A DNA stretch of 19,650 nt from a plasmid (CP068400.1), one strand, 5' to 3'; numbered from the stretch's first letter, positions 1 through 18,111 are shown. Program-made: numbers and translations. Notes: a model not told the origin generated them from the letters alone.

Positions 1-1462
1 GATCTCCCCACCGGTTACTGCCGGTAACGTAGACATCCCTCCGCCTCAGACTATCCTGCAGTTTACTGAGAAAGCAGAGCGTGTATCCCCTGCGGGTGAT
101 ATGTTTTTCCTTGTTAATCACCAGCCGTTTCCATGACCGACTGATAATTTCCGTTGGTGCGTCGTCAAAAAACTGCCGCCGTGAGCTGAACTCCCGGCTG
201 AGGTAGTCACAGGCATTCAGAGTGGTAACCCCGGCAGGTGCGGATGAAAATTTAACGGTATTCAGCAGATGGGGCAGGAAACGACGAACGCGCCCGTACT
301 GCTCCACCATTTCTTCATGAAAATTATCGTCTGAGGGCCGGGCAATTTCACGGACAAGCGTGATGATTTCAGCCAGCTTTTGCCTTGGGATGTAGCTGAA
401 CACCTCAGCACGAATCGATTCGTCCGGTGTTTCTTCTTTCAGCAGGTACGAACATGCGCTGGCGAGCGCCAATGCAGATTTATCCAGATCCTTCAGCGAG
501 CGGAGCCGTTTTTTCTGCCCAATCTTTCTGGCGTCACGGATGATAACGGCCAGCATGGCGTCCAGAACGTCCAATGCATCATCCAGCGCCAGCGTTTCCC
601 ATGCAAGGACAAAGGCAACCAGAACCGCCATCCTTTTCTGCGGTGACATCCTGGCAATATTGAACACCGAAGTCATACCAGCATAACGTGCGAGATTTTT
701 CAGGCGCACAGCCGGGAGTGTACTCAGGTTTTCAGCATGCAGGCCAAAATCGTTCAGAGTTTTCCAGCGTTCAATTGCTTCATTAAACGCCGGACCACTG
801 ATGGTCACAGGGCCCTTTTTCAGTGATTCCAGTAAAGACAGGCGGCTGCAATCAGTTGGCCCCAGCAGCATCTCCAGCTGTGAACGCTGTTCGGCTGACG
901 GTATCAGTGCCAGTTTGTTCCACAGGCGCAACGTCGCCTTTTCCCTTACCTCTGAAATCAACCGGGTCAGCGTAGTGGCTCCGGGGAGAATAATACGATG
1001 TTGCATAAGCCACCCTGTCGCCAGATCGAAAAGCAGGCCAGGACGTTCGTTGCTTATCCAGCTCCGGGTATATAAAAGACGGGTAAGGCGAAATGTCCAG
1101 GGCCAGGCAAATTCACGATACTGATAGTGCTGACGTATCAGCGCTGCATGCTCACGGCGGGTATTTTCCCTCTGACCGTATTCTGCAAGAACGGTGATAT
1201 CACGAATCCCGAGCTGTCTGGCGGTAAAATGCCGGACGCCGGAAGGAATATGATTCATATCGGTGAGGAAGGTGCCCAGAAAACGGACACATCCAATTTG
1301 CAGGGCAATGCCCAGACGGTTGTGATCACCTCTGCTTTTTCCGATAAATTCCTTGTCTGCTTCATCAAGGTGAAAATATCGTGCCAGCTGAAGCTCATCC
1401 GGTTCACCGGTGAATCTGCCATAGCTTTCAGTCTGCTCAGTGGTCAGAAAGTCAACGGGCAT
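1..1462 (-). CDS. tnpA: Tn3-family transposase TnpA, 5' part (N-terminal 487 codons); continues across the circular junction into 18107..19650
   Basis: Minus-strand translation from ATG at 1462..1460 gives MPVDFLTTEQTESYGRFTGEPDELQLARYF..., recognised as the Tn3 TnpA N-terminus. A GGGAGG Shine-Dalgarno lies 6 nt upstream. The frame stays open to base 1. Plus-strand ORFs in 380..1480 are antisense artefacts. Confidence 0.95.
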   Translation of the reverse strand, partial: MPVDFLTTEQTESYGRFTGEPDELQLARYFHLDEADKEFIGKSRGDHNRLGIALQIGCVRFLGTFLTDMNHIPSGVRHFTARQLGIRDITVLAEYGQRENTRREHAALIRQHYQYREFAWPWTFRLTRLLYTRSWISNERPGLLFDLATGWLMQHRIILPGATTLTRLISEVREKATLRLWNKLALIPSAEQRSQLEMLLGPTDCSRLSLLESLKKGPVTISGPAFNEAIERWKTLNDFGLHAENLSTLPAVRLKNLARYAGMTSVFNIARMSPQKRMAVLVAFVLAWETLALDDALDVLDAMLAVIIRDARKIGQKKRLRSLKDLDKSALALASACSYLLKEETPDESIRAEVFSYIPRQKLAEIITLVREIARPSDDNFHEEMVEQYGRVRRFLPHLLNTVKFSSAPAGVTTLNACDYLSREFSSRRQFFDDAPTEIISRSWKRLVINKEKHITRRGYTLCFLSKLQDSLRRRDVYVTGSNRWGD

Positions 1463-2183
<721 letters not shown>

Positions 2184-2295
2184 TACGCCTATTTTTATAG
2201 GTTAATGTCATGATAATAATGGTTTCTTAGACGTCAGGTGGCACTTTTCGGGGAAATGTGCGCGGAACCCCTATTTGTTTATTTTTCTAAATACA

Positions 2296-2324
2296 TTCAA
2301 ATATGTATCCGCTCATGAGACAAT
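2296..2324 (+). promoter_or_regulatory. bla P3-type promoter (-35 TTCAAA, 17-bp spacer, -10 GACAAT)
   Basis: TTCAAA at 2296-2301 and GACAAT at 2319-2324 upstream of bla. This matches the classical TEM promoter arrangement. Confidence 0.7.
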
Positions 2325-2353
2325 AACCCTGATAAATGCTTCAATAATATTGA

Positions 2354-3226
<873 letters not shown>

Positions 3227-3335
3227 CTGTCAGACCAAGTTTACTCATATATACTTTAGATTGATTTAAAACTTCATTTTTAATTTAAAAGGATCTAGGT
3301 GAAGATCCTTTTTGATAATCTCATGACCAAAATCC

Positions 3336-3373
3336 CTTAACGTGAGTTTTCGTTCCACTGAGCGTCAGACCCC
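3336..3373. repeat. Tn3-family 38-bp terminal inverted repeat (bla-proximal end)
   Basis: CTTAACGTGAGTTTTCGTTCCACTGAGCGTCAGACCCC is the exact reverse complement of the repeat at 18074..18111. Confidence 0.95.
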
Positions 3374-3378
3374 TGGGA
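3374..3378. repeat. 5-bp target site duplication TGGGA (copy 1)
   Basis: TGGGA sits immediately outside the repeat at 3336..3373, and an identical TGGGA sits at 18069..18073 outside the other repeat. Confidence 0.85.
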
Positions 3379-4196
3379 ATCCGATCATGCAGCCGCCTCT
3401 TATGGCCCCGTGGCTTATCGGTCACGTTGAGAACGGCGTGCCTGCCTGGTCAGTCTGGATTGGCGACAGCCAAAGCGAGGCCATACAGCGCCAGCTGCTG
3501 CGTAATCCATCAACAGAGTTTCACAACCAGCGCCCCGGAGTGACAGGGTTTAATGCGAGTGGCCACCCGGTTTATTTATGCGAGAAACACCCATCGACCC
3601 CACTCAATTGGGACTGGGACAGGGATGCCCCGACAGTAGGCACAGTGCGGTTTTATTGCCCTGAATGCGAGCCGAAGGCACGCCTTCTACCGCTCGCCAT
3701 TCCACGCTCCCCCATGCAGTTTATGACAGCTCAGGAAGCGGCAGAGATACACGCCACAGTGGAGGATAAAGCAGACACCGCAGCCATCTGCGCCGATTGC
3801 CACCGGGCACCGCTGCGAATTGCCAGAGACCGATCAGGCTTTGTTACTGCGTCATGCCCTTGCTGCAATGCCAGCGCTACCTCCTCCGGCAATAATGTCT
3901 CACGCAAGTGGATTGACCCGGAGCCAGTCCAGCCGCGCTATTTCGGCGTCTACCGGGCTGCATACAACGATTTCCCATTGAGCGGTAGCGGTGCAGCTGC
4001 GCTGCAATTGGCGTCCACTTTACCCCTAACGCTGGAAAGGGTGCCGCAGCTCCTGTTTAACCGCTTACGGGCCTGCATTCTGGCTGCGCTGGGCGAATGG
4101 GAGTATCTGGACGGGCTCATGATCGACACCGAACGTGGCGACGGGCCGGAACTTCTCGCCCTGCTGGCACAGCTACGGGCGGCAGATTTGTCGTGA
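3379..4196 (+). pseudogene. 3' part (~272 codons) of a backbone gene for a multi-zinc-ribbon protein, interrupted by the Tn3-family insertion
   Basis: The reading frame NPIMQPPLMAPWLIGHVENG... continues in-frame from 17677..18073 once the transposon and one TGGGA copy are removed. It contains CxxC pairs (FYCPECEP, CADCHRAP, SCPCCNAS). Stop codon at 4194-4196. Confidence 0.75.
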
Positions 4197-4233
4197 CAAC
4201 ACACTGGGGCCTCACAACAAAAAGAGGCATCCC

Positions 4234-6984
4234 ATGGCTATTAAAATCCCGGTCAGTGCGCAATTTGATGCTGCTGACCTTAAACAACAGATCCAGATGG
4301 TCAACGACCAGATCCGCGTCCTTGCTTCGCAGGTTGGGCAAGCCAATAAACAGAAGTTTGAGCCCATTAACCTGCGCTCAAAAGACGATCTGAATGCTTT
4401 CATTAAGCAAATGCAGAAGCTGCTCTCCATCCAGACAGAGCTCAAGCAGACCATGGGCAAGACCGGACAGGGCGCGACTAACCCGCTTATGGCTGACTGG
4501 TCAAAGATGTATACCGATCAGGCAGTACGCATCAAAAAAATGCAGTCCATGCTCCAGTTTCTCGGCGTGGAGTTTAACGACCAGCCAGCGCCGAAACCTA
4601 AGCCGCCAGCACCTACCCCCTCAAATCCTTCACCTGCGCCTCATAGCAGGCCGCAAAACAATAACCAGCCTCCGGCATGGCAGAACCATCTTAGCACGAT
4701 GCTACGCAACGCTGGCCCGGTTGGCGGCACCATTAGCGGCGCAATGAATGCCGGGCTTTCTGGCGGTGCTGGTGCAGGGCTCATGGGCTTAGTAGGCGGT
4801 CTCGCAGCTCTCGGCGTCGGCAAAATCATTGGTGCGATTGCGGACAAGATCGGACAGGCGCAGGACAACGTGATCGGGCTGGATAAGCTCTATCGTCAAG
4901 TGGGCGGAATTGTCAGCTTTTCCAGCCTCCAGCGTGGTGTCATGAGTACCGCCAACCGTCTGGGCATGACCAACGGTGACGCAATCGCGCTGGCCTCCAC
5001 TTATTCCCGCGCCGCTAACATCCAGCCGGGCCAGAACCTTGGCACCGGAATGCTGGTATCTGGCGGTCTGGCACGTTCCTACGGTCTCGACCCAAACAGC
5101 GTCGCGGGCACAATCGGACAGCTCTCCGCCTCCCGTGTCGTAAATAACGATCAGCAGCTGCGCCGCATGGGCCTGCTCATGGGGGAGGCTATCGGCAAAT
5201 CAGGTGCGTTTGCTCAGGCTGGCGAAGCAATGCAGGCAATCAGCGACTTTGCCACCCAACAGGCACGCATGAGCCTGACCGCGCCTAATGTGCCTGGCTA
5301 TGCGGGTGCAATGGCTGGCCTGATGAGCTCAGGGATCCCCGGTATGGATTTGCAGGGCTCCACCAACCTGCTGGGCCGCGTTAATGCGAACCTTCAGCGC
5401 GGTGGCGCGATGGGCGACCCATCACGGGCATTTATGGCCCGCATGGCCCTCCGCAACGGCATCAATAACCCGATGGCGCTTGAAGTCCTCCAGTCTGGCG
5501 GCGCTTTCGGCACAATCAGCAGCACTCTGGGGCCTGATTCGCTGTACGGTCAGCGTTTCGGCGGCAATTATCAGGGCGATCAGACTCTTCTCGATATGAC
5601 CCGGCAGAGCATCCATCGCGCCTATGGTTACGGCCCTGATTCAGTCGTGGCGCTCTCTCGCCACCTTGGCGTCGGTATCAATGACGCGCTGGCAATTGAC
5701 CAAATGAGCAGCGCAGATATGAGCGGCGTTTCTGATCGCCTCAGACGCCTGAAAATTAACCCTGACAGCGTAAACGCAACCAGTTACGCAGCACTGGGCC
5801 AGATCCAAAGTGGCAAAGGGCTGGAGGTCATGGGCAATGAGTACCTCAAGCGTGGGAGCCTTGATGCTGGCGAACGCCAGCGCCTTACCGATGCCCTTCG
5901 AGGGGCTGACCCGCAGAAGCTGAAAGACGTGCTCACTGAGGTTGCCGCAACGCATGGCCCGGCTAAAACAGAAGGGAGCGAGATCCGCGATAATGTAGCG
6001 AAACTTAATAATCAATTTGAGGATTATGCACGCCGCGCCCTGCCTGCTCTCGATGTCATGCGTATGGCGCTGGTCAAAATGACCGGGGGCAGTGAGGACA
6101 GTCTGCGCCGCGATTATGAGAAGGGGATGCGCCTCGATACGCAGCAGCAGGCCCGCCGCAAATACGGCTGGCGTCTCGATGCCTACCAACAGGAAATGAA
6201 CACCTTGCAGGACAAGGGCGTCGGTATGCAGACCATGGGGCCAGATGGCAACCGATACAGGGCACTGAAACGCCAGCAGCACCTCATGCGTCAGCAGCAG
6301 CTCAACTTTGTAGAGCAGGGCAATGCAAATGCACACGCAGCTGCATACGGCCCGCAAACAGCAGGAGAGGCTGCGCTCGACAGCAACTATATTTCTTCAC
6401 CATCCGCCGCCGCAGCTGGCAGCGGTGCTGCCGGAAACTGGGCAGGGAACAATGTCGGCAACGTGAAAGACGTTAACGGCAACTGGCGGCGCTTCCCATC
6501 CCAGCAGGCAGGCGTCGCAGCGTCGGCGGGGCAGCTGCTGCGCTATAGCACCGGGGCATTCAAAGGCGGACGCAAGCGCACCCTGCGCGAGATTGTCAGC
6601 ACATATGCCAGTGGCGATCCTGAGGTGCCGCGCTACATCCGGCAGGCAAGCGAATGGACAGGGTACGGGCCAGATCAACAACTGGACTTAACCGACCAGA
6701 ACACGCTGCTGAACGTGACGCGGGCCATCCTCCGCAAAGAGAACGTGAAAAATGCCAGCATCCCGCAATCAGTGGTTACTGAGGGCGTTAACATGGCACT
6801 GAACAATCAGAACAACTACAAGATCGCCCCTGAAACCATGCCAGCCGGGCAACGCGGAGGAAAAATTGATATTTCAGACGCCAATATCAATGTAAACCTG
6901 CAATACCCTGATGGGCGCACACAAACGCAAAGCGTCCCGGTAAAAAGCTCTTTCACGCAGCCGCGCAGCTTTGCCAGTCGATAG
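4234..6984 (+). CDS. Large hypothetical protein (916 aa) with N-terminal coiled coil, Pro-rich linker, glycine-zipper hydrophobic helices and a long soluble C-terminal region
   Basis: ATG at 4234 with an AAAGAGG Shine-Dalgarno 6 nt upstream (MAIKIPVSAQFDAADLKQQ...). PAPKPKPPAPTPSNPSPAP linker. AGPVGGTISGAMNAGLSGGAGAGLMGLVGGLAALGVGKIIGAIADKIG is a GxxxG-rich TM-like segment. No family recognised by eye. Confidence 0.75.
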   Translation: MAIKIPVSAQFDAADLKQQIQMVNDQIRVLASQVGQANKQKFEPINLRSKDDLNAFIKQMQKLLSIQTELKQTMGKTGQGATNPLMADWSKMYTDQAVRIKKMQSMLQFLGVEFNDQPAPKPKPPAPTPSNPSPAPHSRPQNNNQPPAWQNHLSTMLRNAGPVGGTISGAMNAGLSGGAGAGLMGLVGGLAALGVGKIIGAIADKIGQAQDNVIGLDKLYRQVGGIVSFSSLQRGVMSTANRLGMTNGDAIALASTYSRAANIQPGQNLGTGMLVSGGLARSYGLDPNSVAGTIGQLSASRVVNNDQQLRRMGLLMGEAIGKSGAFAQAGEAMQAISDFATQQARMSLTAPNVPGYAGAMAGLMSSGIPGMDLQGSTNLLGRVNANLQRGGAMGDPSRAFMARMALRNGINNPMALEVLQSGGAFGTISSTLGPDSLYGQRFGGNYQGDQTLLDMTRQSIHRAYGYGPDSVVALSRHLGVGINDALAIDQMSSADMSGVSDRLRRLKINPDSVNATSYAALGQIQSGKGLEVMGNEYLKRGSLDAGERQRLTDALRGADPQKLKDVLTEVAATHGPAKTEGSEIRDNVAKLNNQFEDYARRALPALDVMRMALVKMTGGSEDSLRRDYEKGMRLDTQQQARRKYGWRLDAYQQEMNTLQDKGVGMQTMGPDGNRYRALKRQQHLMRQQQLNFVEQGNANAHAAAYGPQTAGEAALDSNYISSPSAAAAGSGAAGNWAGNNVGNVKDVNGNWRRFPSQQAGVAASAGQLLRYSTGAFKGGRKRTLREIVSTYASGDPEVPRYIRQASEWTGYGPDQQLDLTDQNTLLNVTRAILRKENVKNASIPQSVVTEGVNMALNNQNNYKIAPETMPAGQRGGKIDISDANINVNLQYPDGRTQTQSVPVKSSFTQPRSFASR

Positions 6985-7014
6985 CGGTAGGGGCGTGCTG
7001 GCACGCAAACAACA

Positions 7015-7036
7015 CGGGGCCGCATGGCCCCTTTTT
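7015..7036. terminator. GC hairpin (GGGGCC-GCAT-GGCCCC) plus T-run; terminator for the 916-aa gene, probably bidirectional
   Basis: Perfect 6-bp GC stem followed by TTTTT on the plus strand, placed between convergent genes. Confidence 0.6.
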
Positions 7037-7037
7037 G

Positions 7038-7271
7038 CTATTCCTCGCCTTCGACGGCCTCAAACTCTTTCAGCAGCCGCTCCTCACGGAGCCAGCCCGT
7101 CAGCGTAGAGGATCCAGCCTCAACAACGTTATGCACATTGATGATGGCGTATCGACCAAACTCCCGATAGGAGGGAGAATTTGCCTTGTTAACGATAAGC
7201 GACTGACCACTTTTTTTCAGGTGGCGACTGAGGCGGGCAATGGCGGCACGCTCGGAAACGATGGCTTTCAT
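7038..7271 (-). CDS. Small hypothetical protein (77 aa), possible DNA-binding regulator
   Basis: MKAIVSERAAIARLSRHLKKSGQSL...; the GATTTTGTGTA repeat cluster lies immediately upstream. Weak resemblance to Phd/YefM- or AbrB-like N-termini, not secure. Confidence 0.5.
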   Translation of the reverse strand: MKAIVSERAAIARLSRHLKKSGQSLIVNKANSPSYREFGRYAIINVHNVVEAGSSTLTGWLREERLLKEFEAVEGEE

Positions 7272-7284
7272 GTTGGCAACCTCG

Positions 7285-7330
7285 ATTTGTGTAGATGTGA
7301 TTTTGTGTATATGTGATTTTGTGTAGATGG
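7285..7330. repeat. Three direct copies of GATTT(T)GTGTA (plus TGTGTAGATG x2) in the promoter region of the 77-aa gene; candidate operator
   Basis: gatttgtgtag, gattttgtgtat and gattttgtgtag occur at 13-16-bp spacing directly upstream of the start at 7271. Confidence 0.55.
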
Positions 7331-7362
7331 GATTCTATATGAAAATTCTATTTGGTCAAGCC

Positions 7363-7391
7363 AAAAAAAGGCCCTAAACGGGCCCTTTTTT
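7363..7391. terminator. Bidirectional intrinsic terminator (A7-GGCCC-TAAAC-GGGCC-T6)
   Basis: AAAAAAAGGCCCTAAACGGGCCCTTTTTT. The stop codon of the 7390..7557 ORF abuts the hairpin. Confidence 0.7.
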
Positions 7392-7557
7392 ATGCTCTCG
7401 GCGGCGTAGGGTAGCGCCAGTGCCATGTTGGCGCAGCCATTATCCGGCGCATCCTCTCGCGTGCTGCGGCGCGGATCCCTGCGTGCATCCTGCGCCTTTT
7501 CTTGGCGTCATGGGGAGCCATAACGCGCGAGGGGATCACCAGATTGGACTCAATCAT
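7390..7557 (-). CDS. Small basic Arg-rich hypothetical protein (55 aa), distal gene of the overlapping operon
   Basis: ATG at 7557 overlaps the upstream stop by 8 nt (ATGATTGA). The ORF ends at the terminator. Composition only; could be non-coding. Confidence 0.35.
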   Translation of the reverse strand: MIESNLVIPSRVMAPHDAKKRRRMHAGIRAAARERMRRIMAAPTWHWRYPTPPRA

Positions 7558-7918
7558 ATTCAGGTTTGCCCTCCTGCTTAACCGGATCGCGTAACTGGTG
7601 CTCCCGGTAGTTATCGCCCTGTTCCTGCCTCGCTTCATCCTCAGGTAAGAGGTTTAACGCAACAAGGTGCTGGAGTTCGGCATGGCGTTGACGCATATCA
7701 GCGGAGTCAGCCAGCCACTCACGGCGGGCCTTTGCCAGCCCCTCAGCCTCTTTGAGTAAAGCCGCGTCGTCATGAATAGCAGGGGAGGAATACCCCTCGT
7801 TACGCAGAACGGTGCGAAGATGTGCCAGCTGCATGACGTGATCAGAAGTGCGCTCACCCGCAGGCAAGCGCAGCGCAGACAGACAGGCCAGCAATACGGC
7901 CCGGCTGTTTATTTCCAT
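7550..7918 (-). CDS. Hypothetical protein (122 aa)
   Basis: Overlaps the upstream gene by 10 nt; no recognisable motif. Confidence 0.5.
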
Positions 7919-8514
7919 CCCTGAGCGCTCCAGTCGATACCCTGTACAGCTGGAGAGAGCGGCTCCTCCGTCAGCTGCTGGCGAACGGCTGCGATACCGG
8001 GGGCACGGGCAGCGTCTGGAAGGCCACGAGAGGCAGAAAGAGCCTCGCTCAGCTCAACAATCTGCCCACTTGAAACGCCAGCGCTCTCACACTCGCGCAG
8101 CAGCTGCTGATCGGCAATCTGCTGCTGCCGGGCCAGATGGATTTGCTCAACCGACAGGTTGCGGGTGATCGTCATATCCGGGACGGACTGCACAGGGGAA
8201 CCGCTCATTGCCTGCGCCAGCACATCGCCAGCGGTGGATTTGGTCATTGGCTCAGTGGAGAATCGGCGCATAACGCCAGCAATTCGCCCCTCGATCTCCT
8301 CCTGAGAAACGCCAGCAGCCTCACCAGCTGCAACCATATCTTTGAGCATCCTCTGATGATGCTCCGGCACGCCCAGCTCAACACAGCTTTTCAGCGCTAA
8401 ATCCAGCGACTGACGCGCCAGAGGTTGACCGGAAGCCACAGACAGCGCTTTAGTCAGCGTCACAGGGCCCTGCGCATCACGCAGCAGCTCAAGAAGTTTT
8501 TGGAAGTTACCCAT
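7909..8514 (-). CDS. Hypothetical protein (201 aa; [20 protein letters not shown]...)
   Basis: ATG at 8514 overlaps the stop of the upstream gene as ATGGGTAA. The longer ORF-track start (8613) is probably an over-extension. Confidence 0.55.
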
Positions 8515-9142
8515 TAGCGCGATCCCCCTGGTAATTTTTAAGCGCCAGAACCATACCCTGATTTTGCAGAAGCAGCCCCAGACGACGATCCAGCGTAACC
8601 GAAGCCGCGCCATTGCTTACTTTCGCGCCAGCCATCGCAGCCAGATCCATGGACTCACGCAGCAGAGTGCTCACGTAGGCCAGATGGGCGCTCAGATACG
8701 CATCCTCAGCCGCACGGTCTACGTTTGCATTGAGCATATCGATCTGGTGCTGGCAGGCTGACAGCTCGCTGCGGGTGGCTGCTGCCACCTGCTGCGCCGC
8801 TACCAGTTCGTTTTGCACCTCAGGCAGAAGGGCCGGAGCCATACCACACTCAGGGCGAACCGGTTCGCCAGAACGTAGGCAGGCTTTACCCTCCTCGATC
8901 AGCTCATTCAGATTCGCCAGCTGGGACTCCAAAGAGGAAACCTGCCCATTTTCAATCTCAAGGCGCAGGCGAAGCCCGGTAGCGGCGATCTCCTGCTCGC
9001 TGACCTTATCCAGCAGACGCAGCATGTGTGACCGGAGAGTGCTCAGGTCGCCTAATTTAGGCCCGGAGACCGTCAGGCTCTCCAGCCGGGTGGAAATTTG
9101 GTCGAGTACACGATCAACGTGTTTTTCGCTTTCTTTGCTCAT
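8507..9142 (-). CDS. Hypothetical coiled-coil protein (211 aa), first gene of the operon divergent from the serine recombinase
   Basis: [23 protein letters not shown]... is heptad-rich. AAAGGG Shine-Dalgarno upstream. No Walker motif. Confidence 0.6.
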
Positions 9143-9269
9143 TCGGTATGCCCTTTCTCGTTATAGCCAGCGGAATGCTGACCCTGACAGTTTGCCGTCA
9201 CGACCAGAGCGGTAGGGGGCGTGCCGTTGGCCCGCAAAGGTGACTTTTTGGGTACACCTCAAAAAAGCA

Positions 9270-9325
9270 GTGATTAATGCGTCTTATAGATTGATTTTTT
9301 AACTTAAAAGACGCAATATCTAAAA
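9270..9325. promoter_or_regulatory. Candidate recombinase crossover/res site or divergent promoter-operator (imperfect inverted repeat AATGCGTCTTA ... AAAAGACGCAAT around an AT-rich centre)
   Basis: Inverted repeat at 9276-9286 and 9307-9318, directly upstream of the serine recombinase gene. Confidence 0.3.
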
Positions 9326-9364
9326 ACGCACTACAGAAAACACCCCATAGCGCGGGAGCTAACG

Positions 9365-9991
9365 ATGAATTGCATGATTTACATGAGGGCCAGCACTGAG
9401 ACACAGGACGCCAGCCGCGCAGAGGATGAGCTCAAAACCTTTGCCGCAGCTAATGGCCTGACGATCTGCGGCTGGTATCGGGAGAATATCTCCGGCACGC
9501 AGCTGGAGCGCCCGCAGCTCAATAAACTGCTGCACGACGCCGGGCCGGGATTTGTCCTGCTGGTTGAAAAGCTCGACCGCCTGAGCCGCCTCACCCGTTC
9601 AGAGTGGGAGCAGTTGAAAGAACGGATCAGAGCCAAACGGCTGCGCATCGTCTGCTGCGACATCCCCACGACGCTGGCGGTATTGCAGGGAGAACAGCCG
9701 ACCGGGGCGGGCGGTTTCGACGTTCGCAACGTGGTACTCGATGCGCTCAACTCGATGCTGCTCGATATTGCCGCAGCATGGGCCCGCGACGATTACGAGA
9801 CACGCCGGAAACGTCAGGCGCAGGGAATCCAAAAGGCAGTAGAGGCCGGGAAATATAAGGGGAAACAGCCCAACACGGCACTGCATAAGAAGATTTTGAA
9901 ATACGCAGCCGCAGGACATAAAACGGGGGAGATCGCCAGACTGGCGAACTGCTCACGCTCCACGGTGCTGCGAGTAACGCGAGAGCAGTAG
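9365..9991 (+). CDS. Serine recombinase/resolvase family protein (208 aa) of the backbone
   Basis: N-terminal catalytic domain IYMRASTETQDA with the Ser nucleophile. C-terminal HTH (GEIARLANCSRSTVLRV). GGGAG Shine-Dalgarno 8 nt before ATG 9365. Confidence 0.85.
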   Translation: MNCMIYMRASTETQDASRAEDELKTFAAANGLTICGWYRENISGTQLERPQLNKLLHDAGPGFVLLVEKLDRLSRLTRSEWEQLKERIRAKRLRIVCCDIPTTLAVLQGEQPTGAGGFDVRNVVLDALNSMLLDIAAAWARDDYETRRKRQAQGIQKAVEAGKYKGKQPNTALHKKILKYAAAGHKTGEIARLANCSRSTVLRVTREQ

Positions 9992-11827: not shown

Positions 11828-13384
11828 TTAATCGTTGGCGGCTCGCATCGTCATGCGGCTTGCTACCGTTTCCGGCAGCGGAGGGATAAGCGTACCCTTC
11901 ACAAACCCTGTCTTAGTTCGGTGAGTGGCAGGCTTACCGATAATGGCTGTACGGTCACGAATCAGCGTATTGAACTCATGCCCGTTCGTTTTCCCTGTAT
12001 AGGCACTGACGAACTCACGCCACCATTGAGCGACACATTTAAGCACAATGCCCTTTTCAGCCGATTCATACGGCAATCCGTGGCGCTTCTGCGCAATATC
12101 GGAATGCGCAAAGCTGTAGAACTCATCACAAATTTCGCCGTAATGGTCGGTGATAACGCCGGATGACTTGGCAAGGCCATACTTTTTGTGAAATTCATTC
12201 AGATACTCAGCAGCCTGCTTTGAAGCCAGCGCGGGGCCAGCCTGCTGGTAAGCCTCAATGCGGCTATTCAGACCCTTTGCAATGGCATCCTGTACCCGTG
12301 AGGCATAGTAACCGGGATCGGCCTGAAACAACGGACGGTCATTAACCGGGCCAGACTGGGGCTGGATATGTGAGAATCGGCGGGCGATCTGCTCATCAAT
12401 ACCGGATTCACTGATAAGACCAGGAATAGGATCAGCTGAGGTGTAAATCTTGGTGTAAAGCGGGACTGTCTGGGCTATCTGGTGCTTGGTTGATACGGTG
12501 ATCGCACTCTCCAGAACAAAGGATTTTTTCGTGATGCGCTCCGGCTCGTTAATCGCCAGAATCAGCGCCCGGACAAACTCGCTTGCCGTCCTGCCACTGG
12601 CTGACCCCTTCACGATGGAGTCCAACTCCTGCTCGTTAACTTCCACGACCAAACCCAGCTTTGAGAACGCCCCATTCTTACCGAACAGCAGCCCCTTACC
12701 GAAGTCAGAGACCGCCTGCAAAAACAGGTAAGCGTTTTTACGGTCTGGTGCGAAACGGGCTGCGGCGATCAGGTCGATAAGCTCAGGGAACTGCGGGAAA
12801 TGCTCGCGCCAGTCGTCATTGATGGCCTTGTCCAATTTTGTGACCGGGTAAGGGACATGCGCCAGAGTGATGCGTGCTTTTCCTTCCTCGTCCAGTGTGA
12901 CAGATGCGCTATCGGTGAACATATCAACCGCAACATGAAGGGCAACGAACTGCCGATATGTGCGGATGCAGTCACCAACAATGCCAGAGATAGCTTTTCG
13001 CAGGTCTGTCAGTCGTTCAGAGGCGGTTTTCTTGGTCAGCGCTAATGCTACGGCCTGCCCTGCTGCCTCTTTGCCCTTTTCGGTGTCATGGAAGAAGCCG
13101 CCACAGCTGGATTCAATCAGGCGGAAATCGGACGCTCCAAAGCGCTTAATATGTGCGGCCTTGTCCAGGTGGATGTATTGCTTTTTCTCCGGGAACCAGA
13201 GAGACCGGGAAAGGCAGTAAGCTATTGCAGGGAGGTTAATCCCCAACTCCTGCGCTTTCTCGCTGCGCTCCATTTCCGCCAATTGAAATAAGTCAGCGCA
13301 TAAATGCTCACGGACGGCGGCAATGATTTTGCCGAATAGCTGCGGGGGGAGCTCGATAAAAGAGGCCGTGATGTTATCTGCCAT
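11828..13384 (-). CDS. Large hypothetical protein (518 aa) flanked by the iteron origin (3' side) and DnaA boxes/leader elements (5' side); candidate replication initiator, no P-loop
   Basis: Long uninterrupted ORF MADNITASFIELPPQLFGKIIAAV... with an AAGGA Shine-Dalgarno. No GxxxxGK[ST] Walker A, no HUH motif, no family recognised by eye. The role is inferred from position only. Confidence 0.7.
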   Translation of the reverse strand: MADNITASFIELPPQLFGKIIAAVREHLCADLFQLAEMERSEKAQELGINLPAIAYCLSRSLWFPEKKQYIHLDKAAHIKRFGASDFRLIESSCGGFFHDTEKGKEAAGQAVALALTKKTASERLTDLRKAISGIVGDCIRTYRQFVALHVAVDMFTDSASVTLDEEGKARITLAHVPYPVTKLDKAINDDWREHFPQFPELIDLIAAARFAPDRKNAYLFLQAVSDFGKGLLFGKNGAFSKLGLVVEVNEQELDSIVKGSASGRTASEFVRALILAINEPERITKKSFVLESAITVSTKHQIAQTVPLYTKIYTSADPIPGLISESGIDEQIARRFSHIQPQSGPVNDRPLFQADPGYYASRVQDAIAKGLNSRIEAYQQAGPALASKQAAEYLNEFHKKYGLAKSSGVITDHYGEICDEFYSFAHSDIAQKRHGLPYESAEKGIVLKCVAQWWREFVSAYTGKTNGHEFNTLIRDRTAIIGKPATHRTKTGFVKGTLIPPLPETVASRMTMRAAND

Positions 13385-13404
13385 TTACTTTAGTCCTTGT
13401 ATGC

Positions 13405-13427
13405 AAAAAAGCAGCGCCAAAAGGCGC
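13405..13427 (-). terminator. Terminator-like hairpin (GCGCC-TTTT-GGCGC + T6 on the minus strand) about 20 nt upstream of the 518-aa start codon; candidate attenuator
   Basis: On the minus strand the hairpin is followed by TTTTTT, then the Shine-Dalgarno and ATG. Its position inside the leader suggests attenuation. Confidence 0.35.
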
Positions 13428-13434
13428 GTAACAC

Positions 13435-13463
13435 TTGATTGCTCAGGAACCAATGGCTATCAT
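13435..13463 (+). promoter_or_regulatory. Near-consensus sigma70 promoter (TTGATT, 17-bp spacer, TATCAT) reading rightward, away from and antisense to the 518-aa gene leader
   Basis: -35 at 13435-13440 and -10 at 13458-13463 with exactly 17-bp spacing. Confidence 0.45.
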
Positions 13464-13469
13464 CACTTT

Positions 13470-13560
13470 TGCCCGGTGATGATTTGTAACCAGCCCATGT
13501 GGTTCCAACGCAAATCAAAACTATTTCGCAGAGGCCCCAGTTACCAGCTGGGGCCTTTTG
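13470..13560 (+). ncRNA. Candidate ~90-nt countertranscript (antisense RNA) from the promoter at 13435..13463 to the terminator at 13532..13560
   Basis: The promoter is followed about 70 nt later by an 8-bp GC stem (AGGCCCCA/TGGGGCCT) and TTTT. No convincing ORF with a Shine-Dalgarno in the interval. Confidence 0.35.
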
Positions 13561-13670
13561 CATTTCAGGGATAAGCATAGCGATCCAAAACGGCGTCGGC
13601 AAGCGATGATCAGGCGTCGATCTTCATCTTTTTTGCGTCACCCCTCCCCTCCTTACGTCATGCCTGCCGT

Positions 13671-13709
13671 TGTGGATAAGTTGTTGTTGAAAAGGTGATT
13701 TTATCCACA
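13671..13709. promoter_or_regulatory. Two perfect consensus DnaA boxes (TTATCCACA) in inverted orientation, 21 bp apart
   Basis: tgtggataa at 13671-13679 and ttatccaca at 13701-13709, both 9/9 matches; a third degenerate copy (ctgtggac) lies nearby. Confidence 0.65.
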
Positions 13710-13834
13710 CTTTATGGCTCCGCTGTGGACTGTCTTTGTGTCGAGCCAACGGCTCGGCCCTTACCGCTAATGTGTCACATTGCATTACGTAGTGTATGAC
13801 GTAATAATGCACTGAAACACAAACGGGGGACGCC

Positions 13835-14353
13835 ATGAAAGAGAACAAAACAGCCGCCCTGAGCCTCAGGCTCCCGGCAGATCTCATGCAGTTACTTGAT
13901 GAGCGAGCCAGTGCTGAACACCTCACCCGCACAGATATAGCGCTGGCTGCGCTCCGGGAGTACCTCGGCGTCGCTACAGCTCCGGCAGCGTCTGACAAGC
14001 TCGATAGGGTGATCGAACTACTGGAAACCATTGCTGGGAATGCCCCACAGCGTAAGACAGCCGCACCACAGCGTCAGACAGTGCAACACGCTGAAGCAAC
14101 ACAACGTAACACGCCGTCAGGCAATGAAATACAGCGTAATACGGCGCGAGCCGCCGATCCTCGTTTTCATGCCGTAGACCCTGAGGCCGATGCCATGATA
14201 GTGCGCATGAGTGCTGAGGGGGCCGGGCTGGCTGACATTACGAATGCGCTCAATGCGCTGGGCTTTACCAGTGCGACCGGGCAGGAGTGGACACGCAGCC
14301 GCCTGCGGGACTATCGGCATAAGCTGCGGGATAGTGGACTGCTCAATGGCTAA
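13835..14353 (+). CDS. Ribbon-helix-helix (CopG/Arc/MetJ-like) DNA-binding protein, 172 aa
   Basis: The N-terminal LSLRLPADLMQLLDERASAEHLTRTDIALAALREYL fits the RHH beta-alpha-alpha pattern. The gene overlaps the downstream gene by 8 nt. Confidence 0.7.
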   Translation: MKENKTAALSLRLPADLMQLLDERASAEHLTRTDIALAALREYLGVATAPAASDKLDRVIELLETIAGNAPQRKTAAPQRQTVQHAEATQRNTPSGNEIQRNTARAADPRFHAVDPEADAMIVRMSAEGAGLADITNALNALGFTSATGQEWTRSRLRDYRHKLRDSGLLNG

Positions 14354-14807
14354 GAATAACTACGGCATTAATGGCTCACCTAACAGCCATATAGCCCACC
14401 CAGCAGGGCTCCCATGTTTTGGCTCTTTACCGGAGTTTGTTTCAAGAGGGGATGTAATACCTGCCGGGGATATATTTCTGCGCGTGGGGAATCATAGAGG
14501 CCCTAATAGCGGCTTTGGCGTGCGTCATATATGGGCAGAGCATGAAAAGGAACTGGTGCGGCTCGGTTATCATACCGTGAATGATGTGGCCCGTTTCGTG
14601 TGTGACGTTATTCAGCCAGGTGCTGGAGTGTATTGTGAGTTCAACCATCCGGGTGGGAAGCACAGGCCGAAGGTTTTACGTTCAGCGCTTGGGATCGTCA
14701 TACTGGAGCCAAAAGAGGCTGACTGGGCTCAGAGCGGATGGATTTACAGCGTAGTAACCGCGTATGAGACTCACAGGACGCAAGGCACGTTGTTAGGCAG
14801 GTTATAA
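14346..14807 (+). CDS. Hypothetical protein (153 aa) translationally coupled to the RHH gene
   Basis: The ATG at 14346 overlaps the RHH stop as ATGGCTAA. MAKNNYGINGSPNSHIAHPAG...HIWAEHEKE... has no recognised family. Confidence 0.6.
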   Translation: MAKNNYGINGSPNSHIAHPAGLPCFGSLPEFVSRGDVIPAGDIFLRVGNHRGPNSGFGVRHIWAEHEKELVRLGYHTVNDVARFVCDVIQPGAGVYCEFNHPGGKHRPKVLRSALGIVILEPKEADWAQSGWIYSVVTAYETHRTQGTLLGRL

Positions 14808-14812
14808 GTTAT

Positions 14813-14843
14813 AAAAAGCAGAAGGGCGCAATAAGCGCCCTTC
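14813..14843 (-). terminator. Intrinsic terminator oriented for leftward (minus-strand) transcripts: GAAGGGCGC-AATAA-GCGCCCTTC with T-run on the minus strand
   Basis: 9-bp GC-rich stem. The A5 on the plus strand gives a U-run for the minus-strand RNA. It lies about 290 nt downstream of the 143-aa gene stop. Confidence 0.6.
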
Positions 14844-14852
14844 GTAATGCTT

Positions 14853-14919
14853 GGTAGCCGCAGCCAATCTTTAGCTCGTGGGTTCAGATACCAACCTGAT
14901 TATTCAGGTTGAGCTACCG
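14853..14919. repeat. Nested inverted repeats forming a compound stem-loop (GGTAGC...GCTACC outer arms; inner perfect hairpin AACCTGA-TTAT-TCAGGTT)
   Basis: Seen directly in sequence, in the long 3' non-coding region of the primase-side operon. Confidence 0.5.
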
Positions 14920-14998
14920 ACAGGAGACCAGCCTCCTGACTGCCCAGCGCAAAGGGCCAATTACTGGTTGATACCCTCTGCGAATGCTCTTGCAGTAC

Positions 14999-15018
14999 AA
15001 CAATAGTAGACTATTGTT
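14999..15018. repeat. Perfect 9-bp inverted repeat AACAATAGT-AG-ACTATTGTT
   Basis: Seen directly in sequence. Confidence 0.6.
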
Positions 15019-15135
15019 ACGGGACATGCAACCGTCATTATCCGCGCCAGACGTGACGGGGAGCGGCTTTGCGGAGATATTTACTCTTTTTTGAAGTCTA
15101 TCGGTATGGGCGGCGGTGCCGCAGTTTGTGCCAAT

Positions 15136-15567
15136 TCACGCCATACAGCTGCTAATAAACTCAACGATCTGGCGCTGCTCATTCTCGCTGATTGTTTGCC
15201 ACTCAGGAGCCACGTCAGGCAACCCACGATAAGCAGTTTGCGTCAGCCCCATAATTCGTGCGAACAGCTGGCAGGTGAATGTTTCCCGTTCTATCTGGCA
15301 GTGGCTGGCGTATACCTTGCCCGTTTTGTCTTTGCGCAGGCTGCGGGCCACATCAGCGTAATAGGCTGGGGTGGCCCATTCGTGTCCGCGTATGGAATGC
15401 CCCACTATCATCATCACACCGCCGCGCATAATGCGCTTACCGAACGCGATCACAGGGCCCTCAGGCCCTGCTGATTTGCCGCCTTCCCGGTGCCACTGTG
15501 CAAGCGATAATTTGATGATGTGCGTGAGCTCCGCTGTGGTATCTCTGCGGATTTGTTCGTGGTTCAT
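15136..15567 (-). CDS. Hypothetical protein (143 aa)
   Basis: MNHEQIRRDTTAEL... The start ATG overlaps the upstream stop as ATGA. No family recognised. Confidence 0.55.
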   Translation of the reverse strand: MNHEQIRRDTTAELTHIIKLSLAQWHREGGKSAGPEGPVIAFGKRIMRGGVMMIVGHSIRGHEWATPAYYADVARSLRKDKTGKVYASHCQIERETFTCQLFARIMGLTQTAYRGLPDVAPEWQTISENEQRQIVEFISSCMA

Positions 15568-15851
15568 TGAACTCTCCCAGCGTGCGCCGCTGCTGCGCTT
15601 GCTTCAATGGCGTCAGCCATGGCCCCAAGACGCTCGATTTGAGTCGCCAGACCGTTAGCGCCATGCAGCTGCTGGAGCGTAACCATTTGAGAACCGGCTA
15701 CCGCGATCCATTGTGCCAGAACAGCAGGGTTAGCGACGGCGTAACCTTCTCCCAGCATTGCGTCGAGGTCAGTCACAGCGCGGGCCACAAACAGCGTGGC
15801 GGTCTTGCTGGACTCGTTAAACAGCATCGTTTCAAAGTCCTGATCGGTCAT
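15564..15851 (-). CDS. Small hypothetical protein (95 aa), Ala-rich
   Basis: MTDQDFETMLFNESSKTATLF... A strong AGGAG Shine-Dalgarno lies 7 nt upstream, immediately after the terminator hairpin. Confidence 0.55.
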   Translation of the reverse strand: MTDQDFETMLFNESSKTATLFVARAVTDLDAMLGEGYAVANPAVLAQWIAVAGSQMVTLQQLHGANGLATQIERLGAMADAIEASAAAAHAGRVQ

Positions 15852-15865
15852 GATTTACTCCTGGC

Positions 15866-15899
15866 ATAAAAAAGCCGCTTCCCCAATACGGGGAGCGGC
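15866..15899 (-). terminator. Intrinsic terminator between the primase gene and the 95-aa gene (GCCGCTCCCC-GTATT-GGGGAAGCGGC + T6), probably a partial terminator allowing read-through
   Basis: 10-11-bp stem followed by TTTTTT on the minus strand. The downstream gene's Shine-Dalgarno starts right after the T-run, with no room for a promoter. Confidence 0.65.
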
Positions 15900-15909
15900 G
15901 TGTGAATAT

Positions 15910-17127
15910 TCAAATATTGTGACTGGCATCCGATGAGCTCGGCCCGGACAGAGTACCGTCACGACTTTGGCGGGCTTCACGGAACAATGAGCGGAGGAGG
16001 GCGCGGGAATTGTCCACGCCATGACGGGCCAGCAGGTCAAATGGATCGTTGCCGTCCTCAAACAGGCAACGAGAAAGCGGCACGGAATAAACTGGAGGAT
16101 AGCGACGAGTGTTAGCCTCCGCGATACTTTGCGCTATCTCCTCGCCTACGCCCACGTCGCCCACGATGTAGATCGGGCTGTGGTCGTAAACAATGCGCAG
16201 CTCATCAATGACTGCGGCAAAATTATTGCAGCTCATTGCACAGAACACAGGCAATGCTCCGCCCATAGCGAGAGACAGGGCCAGCCCAGAGGTAAAACCC
16301 TCGCAGATAAACAGAGGTGAACCGTGACGGGCCTTGTCGATGTTGAACGGGTAGAAGCTCCCGCCACGCTGGGCACCCTTGAGGCCGCGTTTTGCTCCGG
16401 TGAATGACAGCTCAGTTTCTGGGCTAGGGCGACCGCAAACGATCTCGACGGTGCTCATGCCCAGCTGCAACTCGTCATCAAAGCGATACAAAGGGATAAT
16501 CATCGAGTGATTCCAGAAAATTCCCTTGCTGGATGCGCCTTTTTCAAAGGTGCGCCAGTTTGCGGCTTTTACGTCATCCGGGAGCGGTAGGGGCAGTGCG
16601 GCTGCACTGCATTTGCCCTGCCAGTATGGCGACAGCGCGGGATCGAGACTGGCCTTGTTATAAATCTGCGTAGCCTGCCGGACGGCAATCTGGCGCTGCC
16701 GTTCGTCAGCCTCCAGTGCTACCCGGTGGGCCTCCTCCATTTCCCGGCGCTGTGCTTCACGTCTGGCGAGGTCTGCGGCGGTCGGTTGGTAGGAGCCAAA
16801 GCGCCCAGAGTGGATCTCCGGGATAAGACCAGAATCACGCAGGAACGCGCCAGCCATGGAGAACGGGCTGAGTTTTTCGAGAGACTGAGGGCGGAGAGCG
16901 GCGCGAATAAGTCCCGCGTCAGCCGGGGCTGCATTAACGCCTGATGCGCTCCAGCGCTCGCAGATGGTCTGCGCATCGCCCAGCCTCAGGATGTTAGCCC
17001 AGCAGGCGATCTGCCGTACCTGCTGCACCCACCCAAGATAATCAGATGCAGGCAGCACGCGTGCCAGCGCCTCATCAAACACGCCGGGCCACAACAGGTA
17101 TTCGTCTTTGCTCTCGCTCATTCTCAT
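15910..17127 (-). CDS. Toprim-domain DNA primase-like protein (~405 aa), satellite-phage (P4 alpha-type) or plasmid primase-like
   Basis: C-terminal Toprim signature LFICEGFTSGLALS ... IYIVGDVGVGEEIAQSIA (invariant Glu and acidic cluster). The start ATG at 17127 overlaps the AlpA stop as ATGA. No helicase P-loop. Confidence 0.7.
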   Translation of the reverse strand: MRMSESKDEYLLWPGVFDEALARVLPASDYLGWVQQVRQIACWANILRLGDAQTICERWSASGVNAAPADAGLIRAALRPQSLEKLSPFSMAGAFLRDSGLIPEIHSGRFGSYQPTAADLARREAQRREMEEAHRVALEADERQRQIAVRQATQIYNKASLDPALSPYWQGKCSAAALPLPLPDDVKAANWRTFEKGASSKGIFWNHSMIIPLYRFDDELQLGMSTVEIVCGRPSPETELSFTGAKRGLKGAQRGGSFYPFNIDKARHGSPLFICEGFTSGLALSLAMGGALPVFCAMSCNNFAAVIDELRIVYDHSPIYIVGDVGVGEEIAQSIAEANTRRYPPVYSVPLSRCLFEDGNDPFDLLARHGVDNSRALLRSLFREARQSRDGTLSGPSSSDASHNI

Positions 17128-17309
17128 CTCTCCGGGCGTCTTTGCGCCTTGATTACCTTCTTTAGCTCCGGGGTAAGCCACCAGTAATGGCCTCCCGGAT
17201 ATGTCCTGCCGTCTGGGGTAGGTACTTTTCCCGCAGCGATCAGGTTGTCCAGGTGGCGAGCGCTGATCCTCAGTGATTCAGCGAGCGCCTTTCGATAAAT
17301 TTTTCTCAA
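17124..17309 (-). CDS. AlpA/Vis/excisionase-family HTH regulator (61 aa)
   Basis: LAESLRISARHLDNLIAAGKVPTPDG....WWLTPELKKVI matches the prophage AlpA-type pattern (HTH followed by conserved P.P and W). Confidence 0.55.
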   Translation of the reverse strand: MRKIYRKALAESLRISARHLDNLIAAGKVPTPDGRTYPGGHYWWLTPELKKVIKAQRRPER

Positions 17310-17676
17310 AGGGTTGGTCTCAACTTCAAAAGGATTTGGCCCCGAAGGGCCGGAGGTACTTTCATGCCAAAAGCATTTTGCAGGTCATAAGGGCTTATGC
17401 GGTGATGCGGGTATTTCTACCCCGGAGAGAGCCGCACTGATCTGCGCCTTTCGCTCTCACGCCCCGTAATGGGTGGAGAGCGCACCCATCTAACCCCTCG
17501 TGGCTGGGGTGTCCTTCAACAAACTGCCGTTGAAATTGGTAAGCGGTGCCCTTGTGATTGCTCCGCCGTGATCAATATAGAAAAAATTGCGGAATTGTGT
17601 CAAGATAAAAAACACGATAAAACCAGCAATGGCGCGGCTTACGGCGTATATGACGTAATGAAAGGCGGTTATAAAA

Positions 17677-18073
17677 ATGGATTCTCCAACACCCGAAAAA
17701 CTCCAGCTTGTCGGAGCCGTCGAGGCTTACCCGGATTTGATGCCCGGCATTCTGTTTGTCACCTGCCCGGATAAAGCAAAATCATGTGTCAGTGTCAGCA
17801 CCTGCCAGCGTCTTCACGACGAAACGATAAGTCGTAAGGCAGACCCTGAGGCTTGCGCCAGACCATGCTCACGATGCGCTACGGGAGTGATTTTGTGGCG
17901 CGGTGAATCTTCACGGCTACCTCCCGTTAATATTGAGCATTGCCCTCGATGCGGGAGAACAGGGAGACTTGTTGGGAAGAAGAACGGCAGCAAGGCTACA
18001 CCATGGAGCGTGTGTTGCGTGTCTTGCTGGAATCGCGTCGCTGAGAACAAAAAGGGCGTTGGAGCCCGTGGGA
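17677..18073 (+). pseudogene. 5' part (132 codons) of the backbone zinc-ribbon protein gene interrupted by the Tn3-family insertion
   Basis: MDSPTPEKLQLVGA...CPRCGRTGRLVGKKNGSKATPWSVCCVSCWNRV... runs in-frame into the inverted repeat, where a transposon-encoded tail follows. The frame continues at 3379 after excising the transposon and one TGGGA copy. Confidence 0.75.
18069..18073. repeat. 5-bp target site duplication TGGGA (copy 2)
   Basis: Identical to 3374..3378 and directly abutting the inverted repeat at 18074..18111. Confidence 0.85.
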
Positions 18074-18111
18074 GGGGTCTGACGCTCAGTGGAACGAAAA
18101 CTCACGTTAAG
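18074..18111. repeat. Tn3-family 38-bp terminal inverted repeat (tnpA-proximal end)
   Basis: GGGGTCTGACGCTCAGTGGAACGAAAACTCACGTTAAG; the tnpA stop codon lies inside it. Confidence 0.95.

Follow-up and report, generated by a model that had tools for sequence, protein, structure and literature searches.

The question raised by plasmid CP068400.1 is what a protein with the look of a phage structural component does on a small plasmid. The whole plasmid sequence of 19,650 nt was analyzed (hereafter the window), with emphasis on the gene at positions 4234-6984 of the plus strand. A first-pass annotation had called its 916-residue product entirely unassigned while noting a resemblance to phage tape-measure or ejection proteins; it had put forward a novel membrane-active effector partnered with an upstream zinc-ribbon gene, and had listed a domesticated phage structural protein among the other options. 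We are nearly certain that the product is a complete homologue of the phage tape-measure protein (TMP) carrying an Enc34-type muralytic domain, so that the resemblance first noticed and the structural-protein option both hold. Taken by itself the protein is ordinary, being a tape measure that bears a muralytic domain; what is unusual is its location on a plasmid and its evolution.

Identity and layout of the protein

The TMP was identified by PHROGs profiles, by tblastn against phage genomes and by a profile of its C-terminal region. It matches phrog_669 at 4e-36 and the tape-measure family phrog_2276 at 2e-15. Local tblastn gave 47% identity between residues 1-916 and gene 23 of Escherichia phage ECML-606-1 (ECML606-1_000023), and 46% identity over the full length to gp017 of Yersinia phage fHe-Yen8-01 (fHeYen801_017). 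Identity to gp008 of Bordetella phage PHB04 is 36% over the whole length. These three carriers are myoviruses of ~90-95 kb, and across the phage genomes searched by tblastn the TMP found matches in phages of ~86-96 kb only. Their gene order is sheath, tube, two small genes, TMP homologue, baseplate, and the 142-aa gene 5' of the homologue matches the tail-assembly-chaperone family phrog_25000; the chaperone gene of ECML-606-1 is ECML606-1_000025. The phage homologue is therefore placed at the tape-measure position, since sheath, tube and chaperone genes lie upstream of it and baseplate genes downstream. PHB04 gp008 is annotated as "internal virion protein with endolysin domain", and the fHe-Yen8-01 homologue is described by its depositor as "phage particle associated protein".

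An exhaustive HMMER search gathered the relatives of the TMP into 840 clusters at 50% identity; among the 150 clusters listed, most full-length relatives measure ~850-1050 aa. The length of 916 aa compares with 919-974 aa in the phage homologues and those of other plasmids. Searches of Pfam, NCBIfam and PDB sequences with the whole protein gave no match, Pfam being silent even at E = 1. The description "entirely unassigned" nevertheless has to be dropped: PHROGs profiles match the protein, and NCBI names its orthologues "lytic transglycosylase". The features of the gene and its immediate surroundings are distributed as follows:

4222-4227, plus strand: Shine-Dalgarno sequence AAGAGG, 6 nt 5' of the TMP ATG, read from the sequence
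4234-6984, plus strand: complete TMP homologue of 916 aa, related over its full length to the gene in the TMP position of the phages
4234-4533, plus strand: N-terminal ~100 residues, presumed docking end, matched to the phage TMP
4585-4641, plus strand: proline-rich linker PAPKPKPPAPTPSNPSPAP, residues 118-136
4714-4854, plus strand: glycine-zipper hydrophobic segment, residues 161-207, the sole predicted membrane-inserting stretch of the TMP
6436-6813, plus strand: predicted Enc34-type (PHA02564) muralytic domain, residues ~735-860, by profile and fold match
6934-6981, plus strand: the last 16 residues, a C-terminal tail which its identity to ECML-606-1 shows to be matched to the phage TMP
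7016-7036, plus strand: terminator-like hairpin GGGGCCGCATGGCCCC followed by TTTTT, 32 nt past the TMP stop, a consensus match only

The longest open reading frame (ORF) in the TMP frame is 4135-6984 (plus strand), and the start is the ATG at 4234. The length of 916 aa is considered correct because AAGAGG precedes this ATG and because the N-terminus MAIKIPVSAQFDA is common to every homologue found; the ORF proposed by the first-pass annotation is thereby borne out. Inspection of the 150 nt upstream of the gene revealed no promoter or pac-like motif common to plasmids and phages. The same 150 nt contain a block, TCGTGACAACACACTGG, which is conserved among the plasmids and has no phage counterpart.

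Several elements of the layout first described stand. The proline-rich linker is present at residues 118-136, and a proline-rich stretch lies at the equivalent position in the phage homologues too. The glycine-zipper stretch corresponds to residues 161-207, which hold 6 GxxxG and 16 small-xxx-small motifs, and it includes the only hydrophobic window of the protein (residues 173-207; Kyte-Doolittle 19-residue mean > 1.2). Residues 151-200 are 64-72% identical to the three phage TMPs, and the hydrophobic zipper reads as a conserved TMP feature, not as evidence of a toxin. The lack of a signal peptide is likewise confirmed, the N-terminus being that of phage TMPs. The N-terminal coiled coil of ~130 aa survives in part: residues 7-43 exceed the shuffle threshold of a crude heptad test, and the remainder does not. 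Alanine (11%), glycine (11%) and glutamine (8%) figure in the overall composition; the body of the protein is of low complexity and presumably largely helical, a long ruler of the size usual in its family.

The distinct C-terminal module that had been noticed is a folded domain at residues ~740-860, identified as Enc34-type by profile comparison and structure prediction. A profile built from residues 691-916 and their relatives (alignment A3) matches the Enc34 endolysin's catalytic domain (PDB 7q47_A) at E = 3.4e-30 and PDB 9vvp_L, "Gp29", at E = 2.1e-42. Gp29 (9vvp chain L) is a solved chain of 1295 aa which starts with an Enc34-type domain; this indicates that a further large protein has the domain too, at its N-terminus. 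The AlphaFold model of the module has block-mean pLDDT values mostly between 83 and 96. Its top Foldseek match in the PDB is 7q47_B (E = 1.1e-4, probability 1.00, target TM-score 0.65), and no other PDB match has an E-value below 0.9. The predicted fold is all-helical and resembles the alpha-lobe of lysozyme.

The muralytic activity of the Enc34 domain (PHA02564) was shown experimentally, with Glu131 (catalytic), Trp79 and Tyr95 as key residues, and its authors propose a glycosidase (N-acetylglucosaminidase) activity (PMC8943055). The equivalents in the TMP are Glu836 for Glu131, Tyr801 for Tyr95 and Tyr791 for Trp79. Within A3, Glu836 is invariant and Tyr801 nearly so, and Tyr791 is aromatic as in other structural homologues. 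The module is thus a predicted peptidoglycan-degrading domain which keeps the catalytic glutamate. Compared with ORF39 of Hafnia phage Enc34 (PDB 7Q47), profile and fold match and the catalytic Glu and Tyr are kept, but Trp79 is replaced by Tyr and the NNPGN motif reads NNVGN; moreover ORF39 is a free endolysin with a C-terminal membrane anchor, whereas the plasmid version lies within a TMP, close to its C-terminus.

The Pfam SLT domain (PF01464) has no match in the TMP even at E = 1. It is matched in the PHB04 homologue (1.5e-15) and in the plasmid variant P0120. The fHe-Yen8-01 TMP has the same Enc34-type module; ECML-606-1, PHB04 and some plasmid variants have SLT in that place. The NCBI name "lytic transglycosylase" does not fit the module of this variant, which is Enc34-type, and the label was apparently transferred from relatives that do have SLT.

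Selection on the gene and matching of its ends to phages

The plasmid TMP shares with those of ECML-606-1, fHe-Yen8-01 and PHB04 its size, its N-terminus, its proline-rich and glycine-zipper segments and its C-terminal tail. The phage genes sit in a tail cluster, whereas the plasmid copy is without sheath, tube, chaperone and baseplate genes. No tail, capsid, portal, sheath, tube, chaperone or hub gene accompanies the TMP gene on CP068400.1, and the earlier statement that this small plasmid has no tail, capsid, immunity, lysis or secretion genes is correct. When all proteins of CP068400.1 and of its relative L001 were compared by tblastn with ECML-606-1 and other phage loci, only the TMP and part of the cysteine-rich protein encoded upstream of it matched; by blastn against the same loci, only the TMP gene did. 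TMP homologues are present in 23 plasmids. Every TMP copy of this plasmid type that was found is carried either by a plasmid or by a contig of 13-15 kb, and the near-identical TMP clusters include many on such contigs. We are thus dealing with a lone full-length TMP gene on small plasmids of clinical and environmental Enterobacterales.

When plasmid copies of the TMP were compared in blocks of 150 codons, the ratio of non-synonymous to synonymous substitution rates (dN/dS) stayed at 0.07-0.13 throughout, while dS reached 0.47. Identity of the TMP across the compared plasmids is 91-98%, against 28-98%, or no homology at all, for the primase, helicase and recombinase genes; the TMP is the best-conserved gene among the compared plasmids of this mosaic family. 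Its ORF is intact in every examined plasmid except pYe4449-2. The gene appears to be functional and kept intact by selection. In pYe4449-2 (L002, NC_012209.1, 957-3703) the annotation divides the TMP into two ORFs that overlap, the frame shifting near codon 759; the record is old, and the shift may be a sequencing error or else a real disruption.

Identity to ECML-606-1 varies strongly along the protein. It reaches 92% over residues 1-50 and 80% over residues 51-100, falls to 32-72% over residues 101-650 and to 10-36% over residues 651-900, and returns to 75% over the last 16 residues (79% over the last 14); over residues 1-640 taken together it is about 60%. The match of the ends is not due to recent transfer, because dN = 0.09 and dS = 1.8 over the first 100 codons of the CP068400.1 and ECML-606-1 genes. 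Over the first 60 codons, Kosakonia plasmid L007 differs from ECML-606-1 by 18 synonymous and 0 non-synonymous substitutions, the residues being 100% identical. L009, from a second plasmid lineage with an SLT-type TMP, was compared with IMG/VR phage L015: the first 60 residues are 98% identical (24 synonymous substitutions, 1 non-synonymous) and the last 14 residues 71% identical. Each plasmid TMP lineage thus appears to track its own phage, selection holding both ends of the protein identical, or almost so, to those of a given lineage of ~90-95 kb myoviruses (ECML-606-1-like). In a neighbour-joining tree the plasmid TMPs fall into two or more lineages relative to the phage TMPs.

Tape measures are bound by the tail assembly chaperone; their C-terminus is the hub end and their N-terminus is head-proximal. 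Because of these textbook contacts with chaperone and hub, we infer that the ends of the plasmid TMP may be docking surfaces for phage tail components. The pattern of selection makes it likely that the protein interacts with the tail assembly of its cognate phage.

Possible roles of a plasmid-borne tape measure

The reading that we favour, on balance a probable one, is drawn by analogy with known satellites: the TMP would be a plasmid-borne alternative tape measure which joins in when a cognate ECML-606-1-like phage assembles its tails, the most likely purpose being phage-mediated spread of the plasmid. When a phage infects a plasmid-bearing cell, the matched ends of the plasmid TMP would bind the phage chaperone and the baseplate hub, and the protein would be built into tails instead of, or beside, the phage TMP. 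Plasmid DNA would be packaged in phage heads, and these would join tails containing the plasmid TMP. At injection the muralytic domain would open the wall and the glycine-zipper segment would line a membrane channel. The result would be a route between cells for a "non-mobilizable" plasmid, here carrying blaTEM. This gene is a selectable marker, and isolates of candidate helper phages exist. As to the direction of the interaction, hitch-hiking on the phage is a serious possibility, short of being probable; interference with the phage is rather unlikely.

The protein is a member of a known family, and the arrangement varies a theme that was recognised recently, that of tape measures encoded by satellites. 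In Vibrio cholerae, PLE satellites parasitise ICP1, and the PLE TMP is built into satellite virions, giving chimeric tails; PLE TMPs are 19-41% identical to the ICP1 TMP and are accompanied by a chaperone and a hub gene (bioRxiv 10.1101/2025.01.29.635557). Like the PLE, CP068400.1 has its own replication genes, has no tail structural set and encodes a homologue of the helper TMP; a hub-position gene is also found on more distant plasmids here. The PLE are integrated islands, whereas CP068400.1 is a plasmid on which the TMP is the sole tail gene, with ends almost identical to those of the phage. The EPIP satellites of Mycolicibacterium also encode a TMP, and they alter tail length (PMC12822802). 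The likeness lies in a satellite-encoded TMP; the differences are the actinobacterial hosts and the altered tail length of the EPIP.

Another point of comparison is satellite phage P4 in its plasmid state, a small element (11-15 kb) like those of the present family, whose backbone has primase and D5/VapE-type helicase genes. P4 is maintained as a plasmid through its primase-helicase and depends on a myovirus for its particles; it is equipped with cos sites, Sid/Psu control of capsid size and the activator Delta, and encodes no tail protein. In contrast, cos sites, Sid/Psu and Delta were not found on CP068400.1, which does encode a tail protein. Own replication genes together with the lack of a complete virion gene set are a satellite-like trait. 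It may even be, as a tentative extension, that the mosaic "non-mobilizable" enterobacterial plasmids are satellites of ~90-95 kb myoviruses to which the TMP is their sole structural contribution, with chimeric tails and spread across genera. If the TMP does enter tails, satellite-encoded alternative tape measures would extend from the PLE of V. cholerae to plasmids of Enterobacterales, and plasmids typed as "non-mobilizable", including carriers of resistance (blaTEM, CTX-M), would have a phage-based transfer route.

Two more distant TMP plasmids carry further genes related to those of the phages. Atlantibacter plasmid pLH84-a-B (L013, NZ_CP100496.1, 19 kb; features at 2912-4120, 5752-8544, 9114-9602 and 13320-17644) encodes a tyrosine integrase, a primase-helicase sharing 33% identity with that of the phage, a gene described as "terminase small subunit-related" with 37% identity to ECML606-1_000061 and, directly 3' of the TMP, a 519-aa gene 50% identical to the phage's post-TMP gene (ECML606-1_000022). 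On gene content it resembles a more complete satellite of these phages. E. coli plasmid pEC224_4 (L012, NZ_CP018944.1, 27 kb; features at 6967-9816, 17894-18448 and 23497-24372), a non-mobilizable plasmid carrying blaCTX-M-14, has the TMP, the same terminase-related gene and a cysteine-rich gene.

Several points weigh against phage-mediated spread. Packaging, induction and incorporation into virions are proposals drawn from gene content and analogy. At ~14.7 kb without its transposon, the plasmid is about one-sixth the size of an 86-96 kb helper, and multimers would be required for packaging by the headful. The slot that holds the TMP varies, with a ProQ/FinO gene or nothing there in related plasmids, so that the TMP behaves as cargo and is dispensable for the family. 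Scans of IMG/VR by protein pattern, DNA motif and alignment retrieved 86-96 kb phage contigs only and no plasmid-type contig, which is a weak negative, and the plasmid is present in 1 of 5426 complete E. coli genomes. CP068400.1 has no securely identified packaging, capsid-size, chaperone or hub gene. Lastly, matched ends and purifying selection are also expected for a decoy that poisons tail assembly.

Such a decoy would be a defence by poison subunit: the plasmid TMP would compete for chaperone and hub, phage tails would be defective, and the population and the plasmid would be protected without any transfer. Defence by a structural homologue that poisons assembly is what it would amount to. 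A competitive inhibitor would call for just such matched termini around a diverged middle, the slot that the TMP occupies is a variable one for cargo, and tail assembly or the tape measure is an established target of defence in Tab (PMC10884400), Tai (PMC11364771) and Rta of PLE11. These systems would share with the decoy a block of tail assembly (through the tape measure for Tab and Rta) and protection at the population level, but they are small non-TMP proteins which bind or sense a phage component, whereas the candidate agent here is a complete TMP. A decoy would have no need of a full-size ruler, a conserved glycine zipper or intact catalytic residues, yet all are kept at dN/dS ~0.1, and for this reason we prefer a working TMP. 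Plasmid TMPs also alternate Enc34-type and SLT modules as real phage TMPs do, and in the distant plasmids described above a hub gene and a terminase-related gene accompany the TMP, a sign of virion building rather than of sabotage. A PADLOC-DB v2 scan of ten plasmid proteins gave only a 28-residue helix-turn-helix (HTH) match to mad1 and no meaningful defence profile. We regard the decoy as an improbable explanation, though one to be taken seriously.

The remaining explanations are far less probable. The effector of the first-pass annotation, a membrane-disrupting protein forming an abortive-infection-type two-gene module with the zinc-ribbon protein as sensor or activator, could draw on the one strongly hydrophobic glycine-zipper segment, on the spacing of 37 nt between the two genes in intact plasmids and on the reported intrinsic toxicity of TMP expression. 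However, the hydrophobic segment is inherited from phage TMPs, no defence profile matches, plasmids L008 and L009 have the TMP and lack the zinc-ribbon gene, the reverse is seen in at least 30 plasmids, and in CP068400.1 itself a Tn3 element destroyed the zinc-ribbon gene and left the TMP gene intact. That annotation had itself named tape-measure homology with conserved tail neighbours as what would speak against a novel effector; both were found, and we consider this reading very unlikely. No more credible is an inert remnant, a captured fragment of a tail operon without function. The TMP is the sole tail gene on the plasmid, other ORFs have no phage match by tblastn save part of the zinc-ribbon gene, and the gene is split in pYe4449-2; but a 2.75 kb ORF that is intact in all other compared plasmids, has a dN/dS of ~0.1 (dS reaching 0.47), surpasses the replication genes in conservation and is represented on plasmids by at least two TMP lineages hardly behaves like debris. 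Least probable of all is a wall or membrane function unrelated to phages, such as a VirB1-like transglycosylase or a bacteriocin-like lysin. The predicted muralytic domain and the NCBI name "lytic transglycosylase" would suit it, but the plasmid has no secretion, conjugation, immunity or lysis genes, the protein has no signal peptide, all 14 close PLSDB relatives are non-mobilizable, and TMP ends which track phages would be left unexplained. A VirB1-like transglycosylase of a type IV secretion system was rejected as there are no transfer genes.

The plasmid family, neighbouring genes and transposon

CP068400.1 is a complete circular plasmid belonging to a family of ~14-15 kb. Megablast retrieved 14 relatives from PLSDB, all typed non-mobilizable, from Enterobacter, Citrobacter, Escherichia, Klebsiella, Kosakonia and Yersinia (pYe4449-2). 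The literature searched contains no mention of pYe4449-2 and no description of this plasmid family. Backbone genes encode a Toprim primase-like protein, a D5/VapE-type helicase, a resolvase-type serine recombinase, a ribbon-helix-helix protein and a 151-aa HTH protein, and include a three-gene operon. The serine recombinase is the sole recombinase, and no integrase is present on CP068400.1. A tectivirus-like or protein-primed linear element was considered and rejected, there being no polymerase or capsid genes. The features outside the TMP gene are:

17677-18073, plus strand: cysteine-rich gene, 5' part, severed by the transposon (by tblastn, residues 6-162 align with 17602-18072)
3375-4196, plus strand: cysteine-rich gene, 3' part (residues 162-434), 98.5% identical to the L001 gene
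10904-11359, plus strand: 151-aa HTH protein, possibly a remote relative, on weak evidence, of the terminase-small-subunit-related protein of the phages, L012 and L013
11828-13384, minus strand: 518-aa D5/primase-helicase-type protein, matching phrog_35045 at 8e-40
15910-17121, minus strand: Toprim/primase-like replication protein (Pfam Toprim_3, DNA-primase PHROGs), only 29-94% conserved in the family
18074-19650: left part of a Tn3-family transposon (inverted repeat and 3' half of tnpA, with a Tn3 DDE transposase domain), continuing across the origin
1-3373: right part of the same Tn3-family transposon, with the rest of tnpA, tnpR (1626-2183), blaTEM (2366-3226) and the right inverted repeat

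The cysteine-rich gene is the one that the first-pass annotation had taken, as a zinc-ribbon gene, for the partner of the TMP gene. Their relation comes down to adjacency: the gene is split here by the Tn3 element, and a check of co-occurrence shows each gene without the other. Since this is so, the two appear to be independent modules, the TMP occupying a variable slot and the cysteine-rich gene being, to judge by its distribution, a backbone gene of a wider plasmid family. Its homologues are found in 54 small plasmids, 53 of them typed non-mobilizable and most without a TMP; in L010, L011, L018 and L019 it is followed by a ProQ/FinO gene or by nothing.

The intact cysteine-rich protein has 434 aa as annotated in L001 (7438-8742). 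The in-frame ORF start at 17677 corresponds to Met31 of the L001 protein, where the alignment of most homologues begins, and this suggests that the annotated L001 start may be too far upstream. The N-terminal domain, with a CVSCWNRERE motif, is homologous to the 181-aa phage protein ECML606-1_000100 (L006, 29153-29698). Neither a family nor a PHROG could be assigned to the protein. A regulatory role comparable to that of P2 Ogr or P4 Delta is a guess by analogy.

The 151-aa HTH family was compared by hhalign with the terminase-related family, giving a probability of 88% over 108 columns, a weak match; other structure and profile searches with this protein were uninformative. Its homologues are confined to this plasmid family, and sister plasmids annotate the equivalent as "transposase". 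The helicase module at 11828-13384 replaces a VapE-type gene (L001, 1762-3042) in plasmids which are otherwise 87-100% identical, and the 518-aa helicase has no tblastn match to the L001 VapE. The three-gene operon at 7550-9142 (minus strand; 211, 201 and 122 aa) converges on the TMP gene. Its first product is coiled-coil-looking, and homologues of the first two genes also occur in plasmids without a TMP; searches of Pfam, PHROGs, NCBIfam and PADLOC gave no family match for the operon.

The transposon totals 4950 bp. It is bounded by perfect 38-bp inverted repeats (18074-18111 and 3336-3373) and flanked by a target duplication, TGGGA, at 18069-18073 and 3374-3378, the insertion falling at about codon 162 of the cysteine-rich gene. 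The bla gene is transcribed towards the truncated cysteine-rich gene and the TMP gene, and read-through might alter expression of the TMP.

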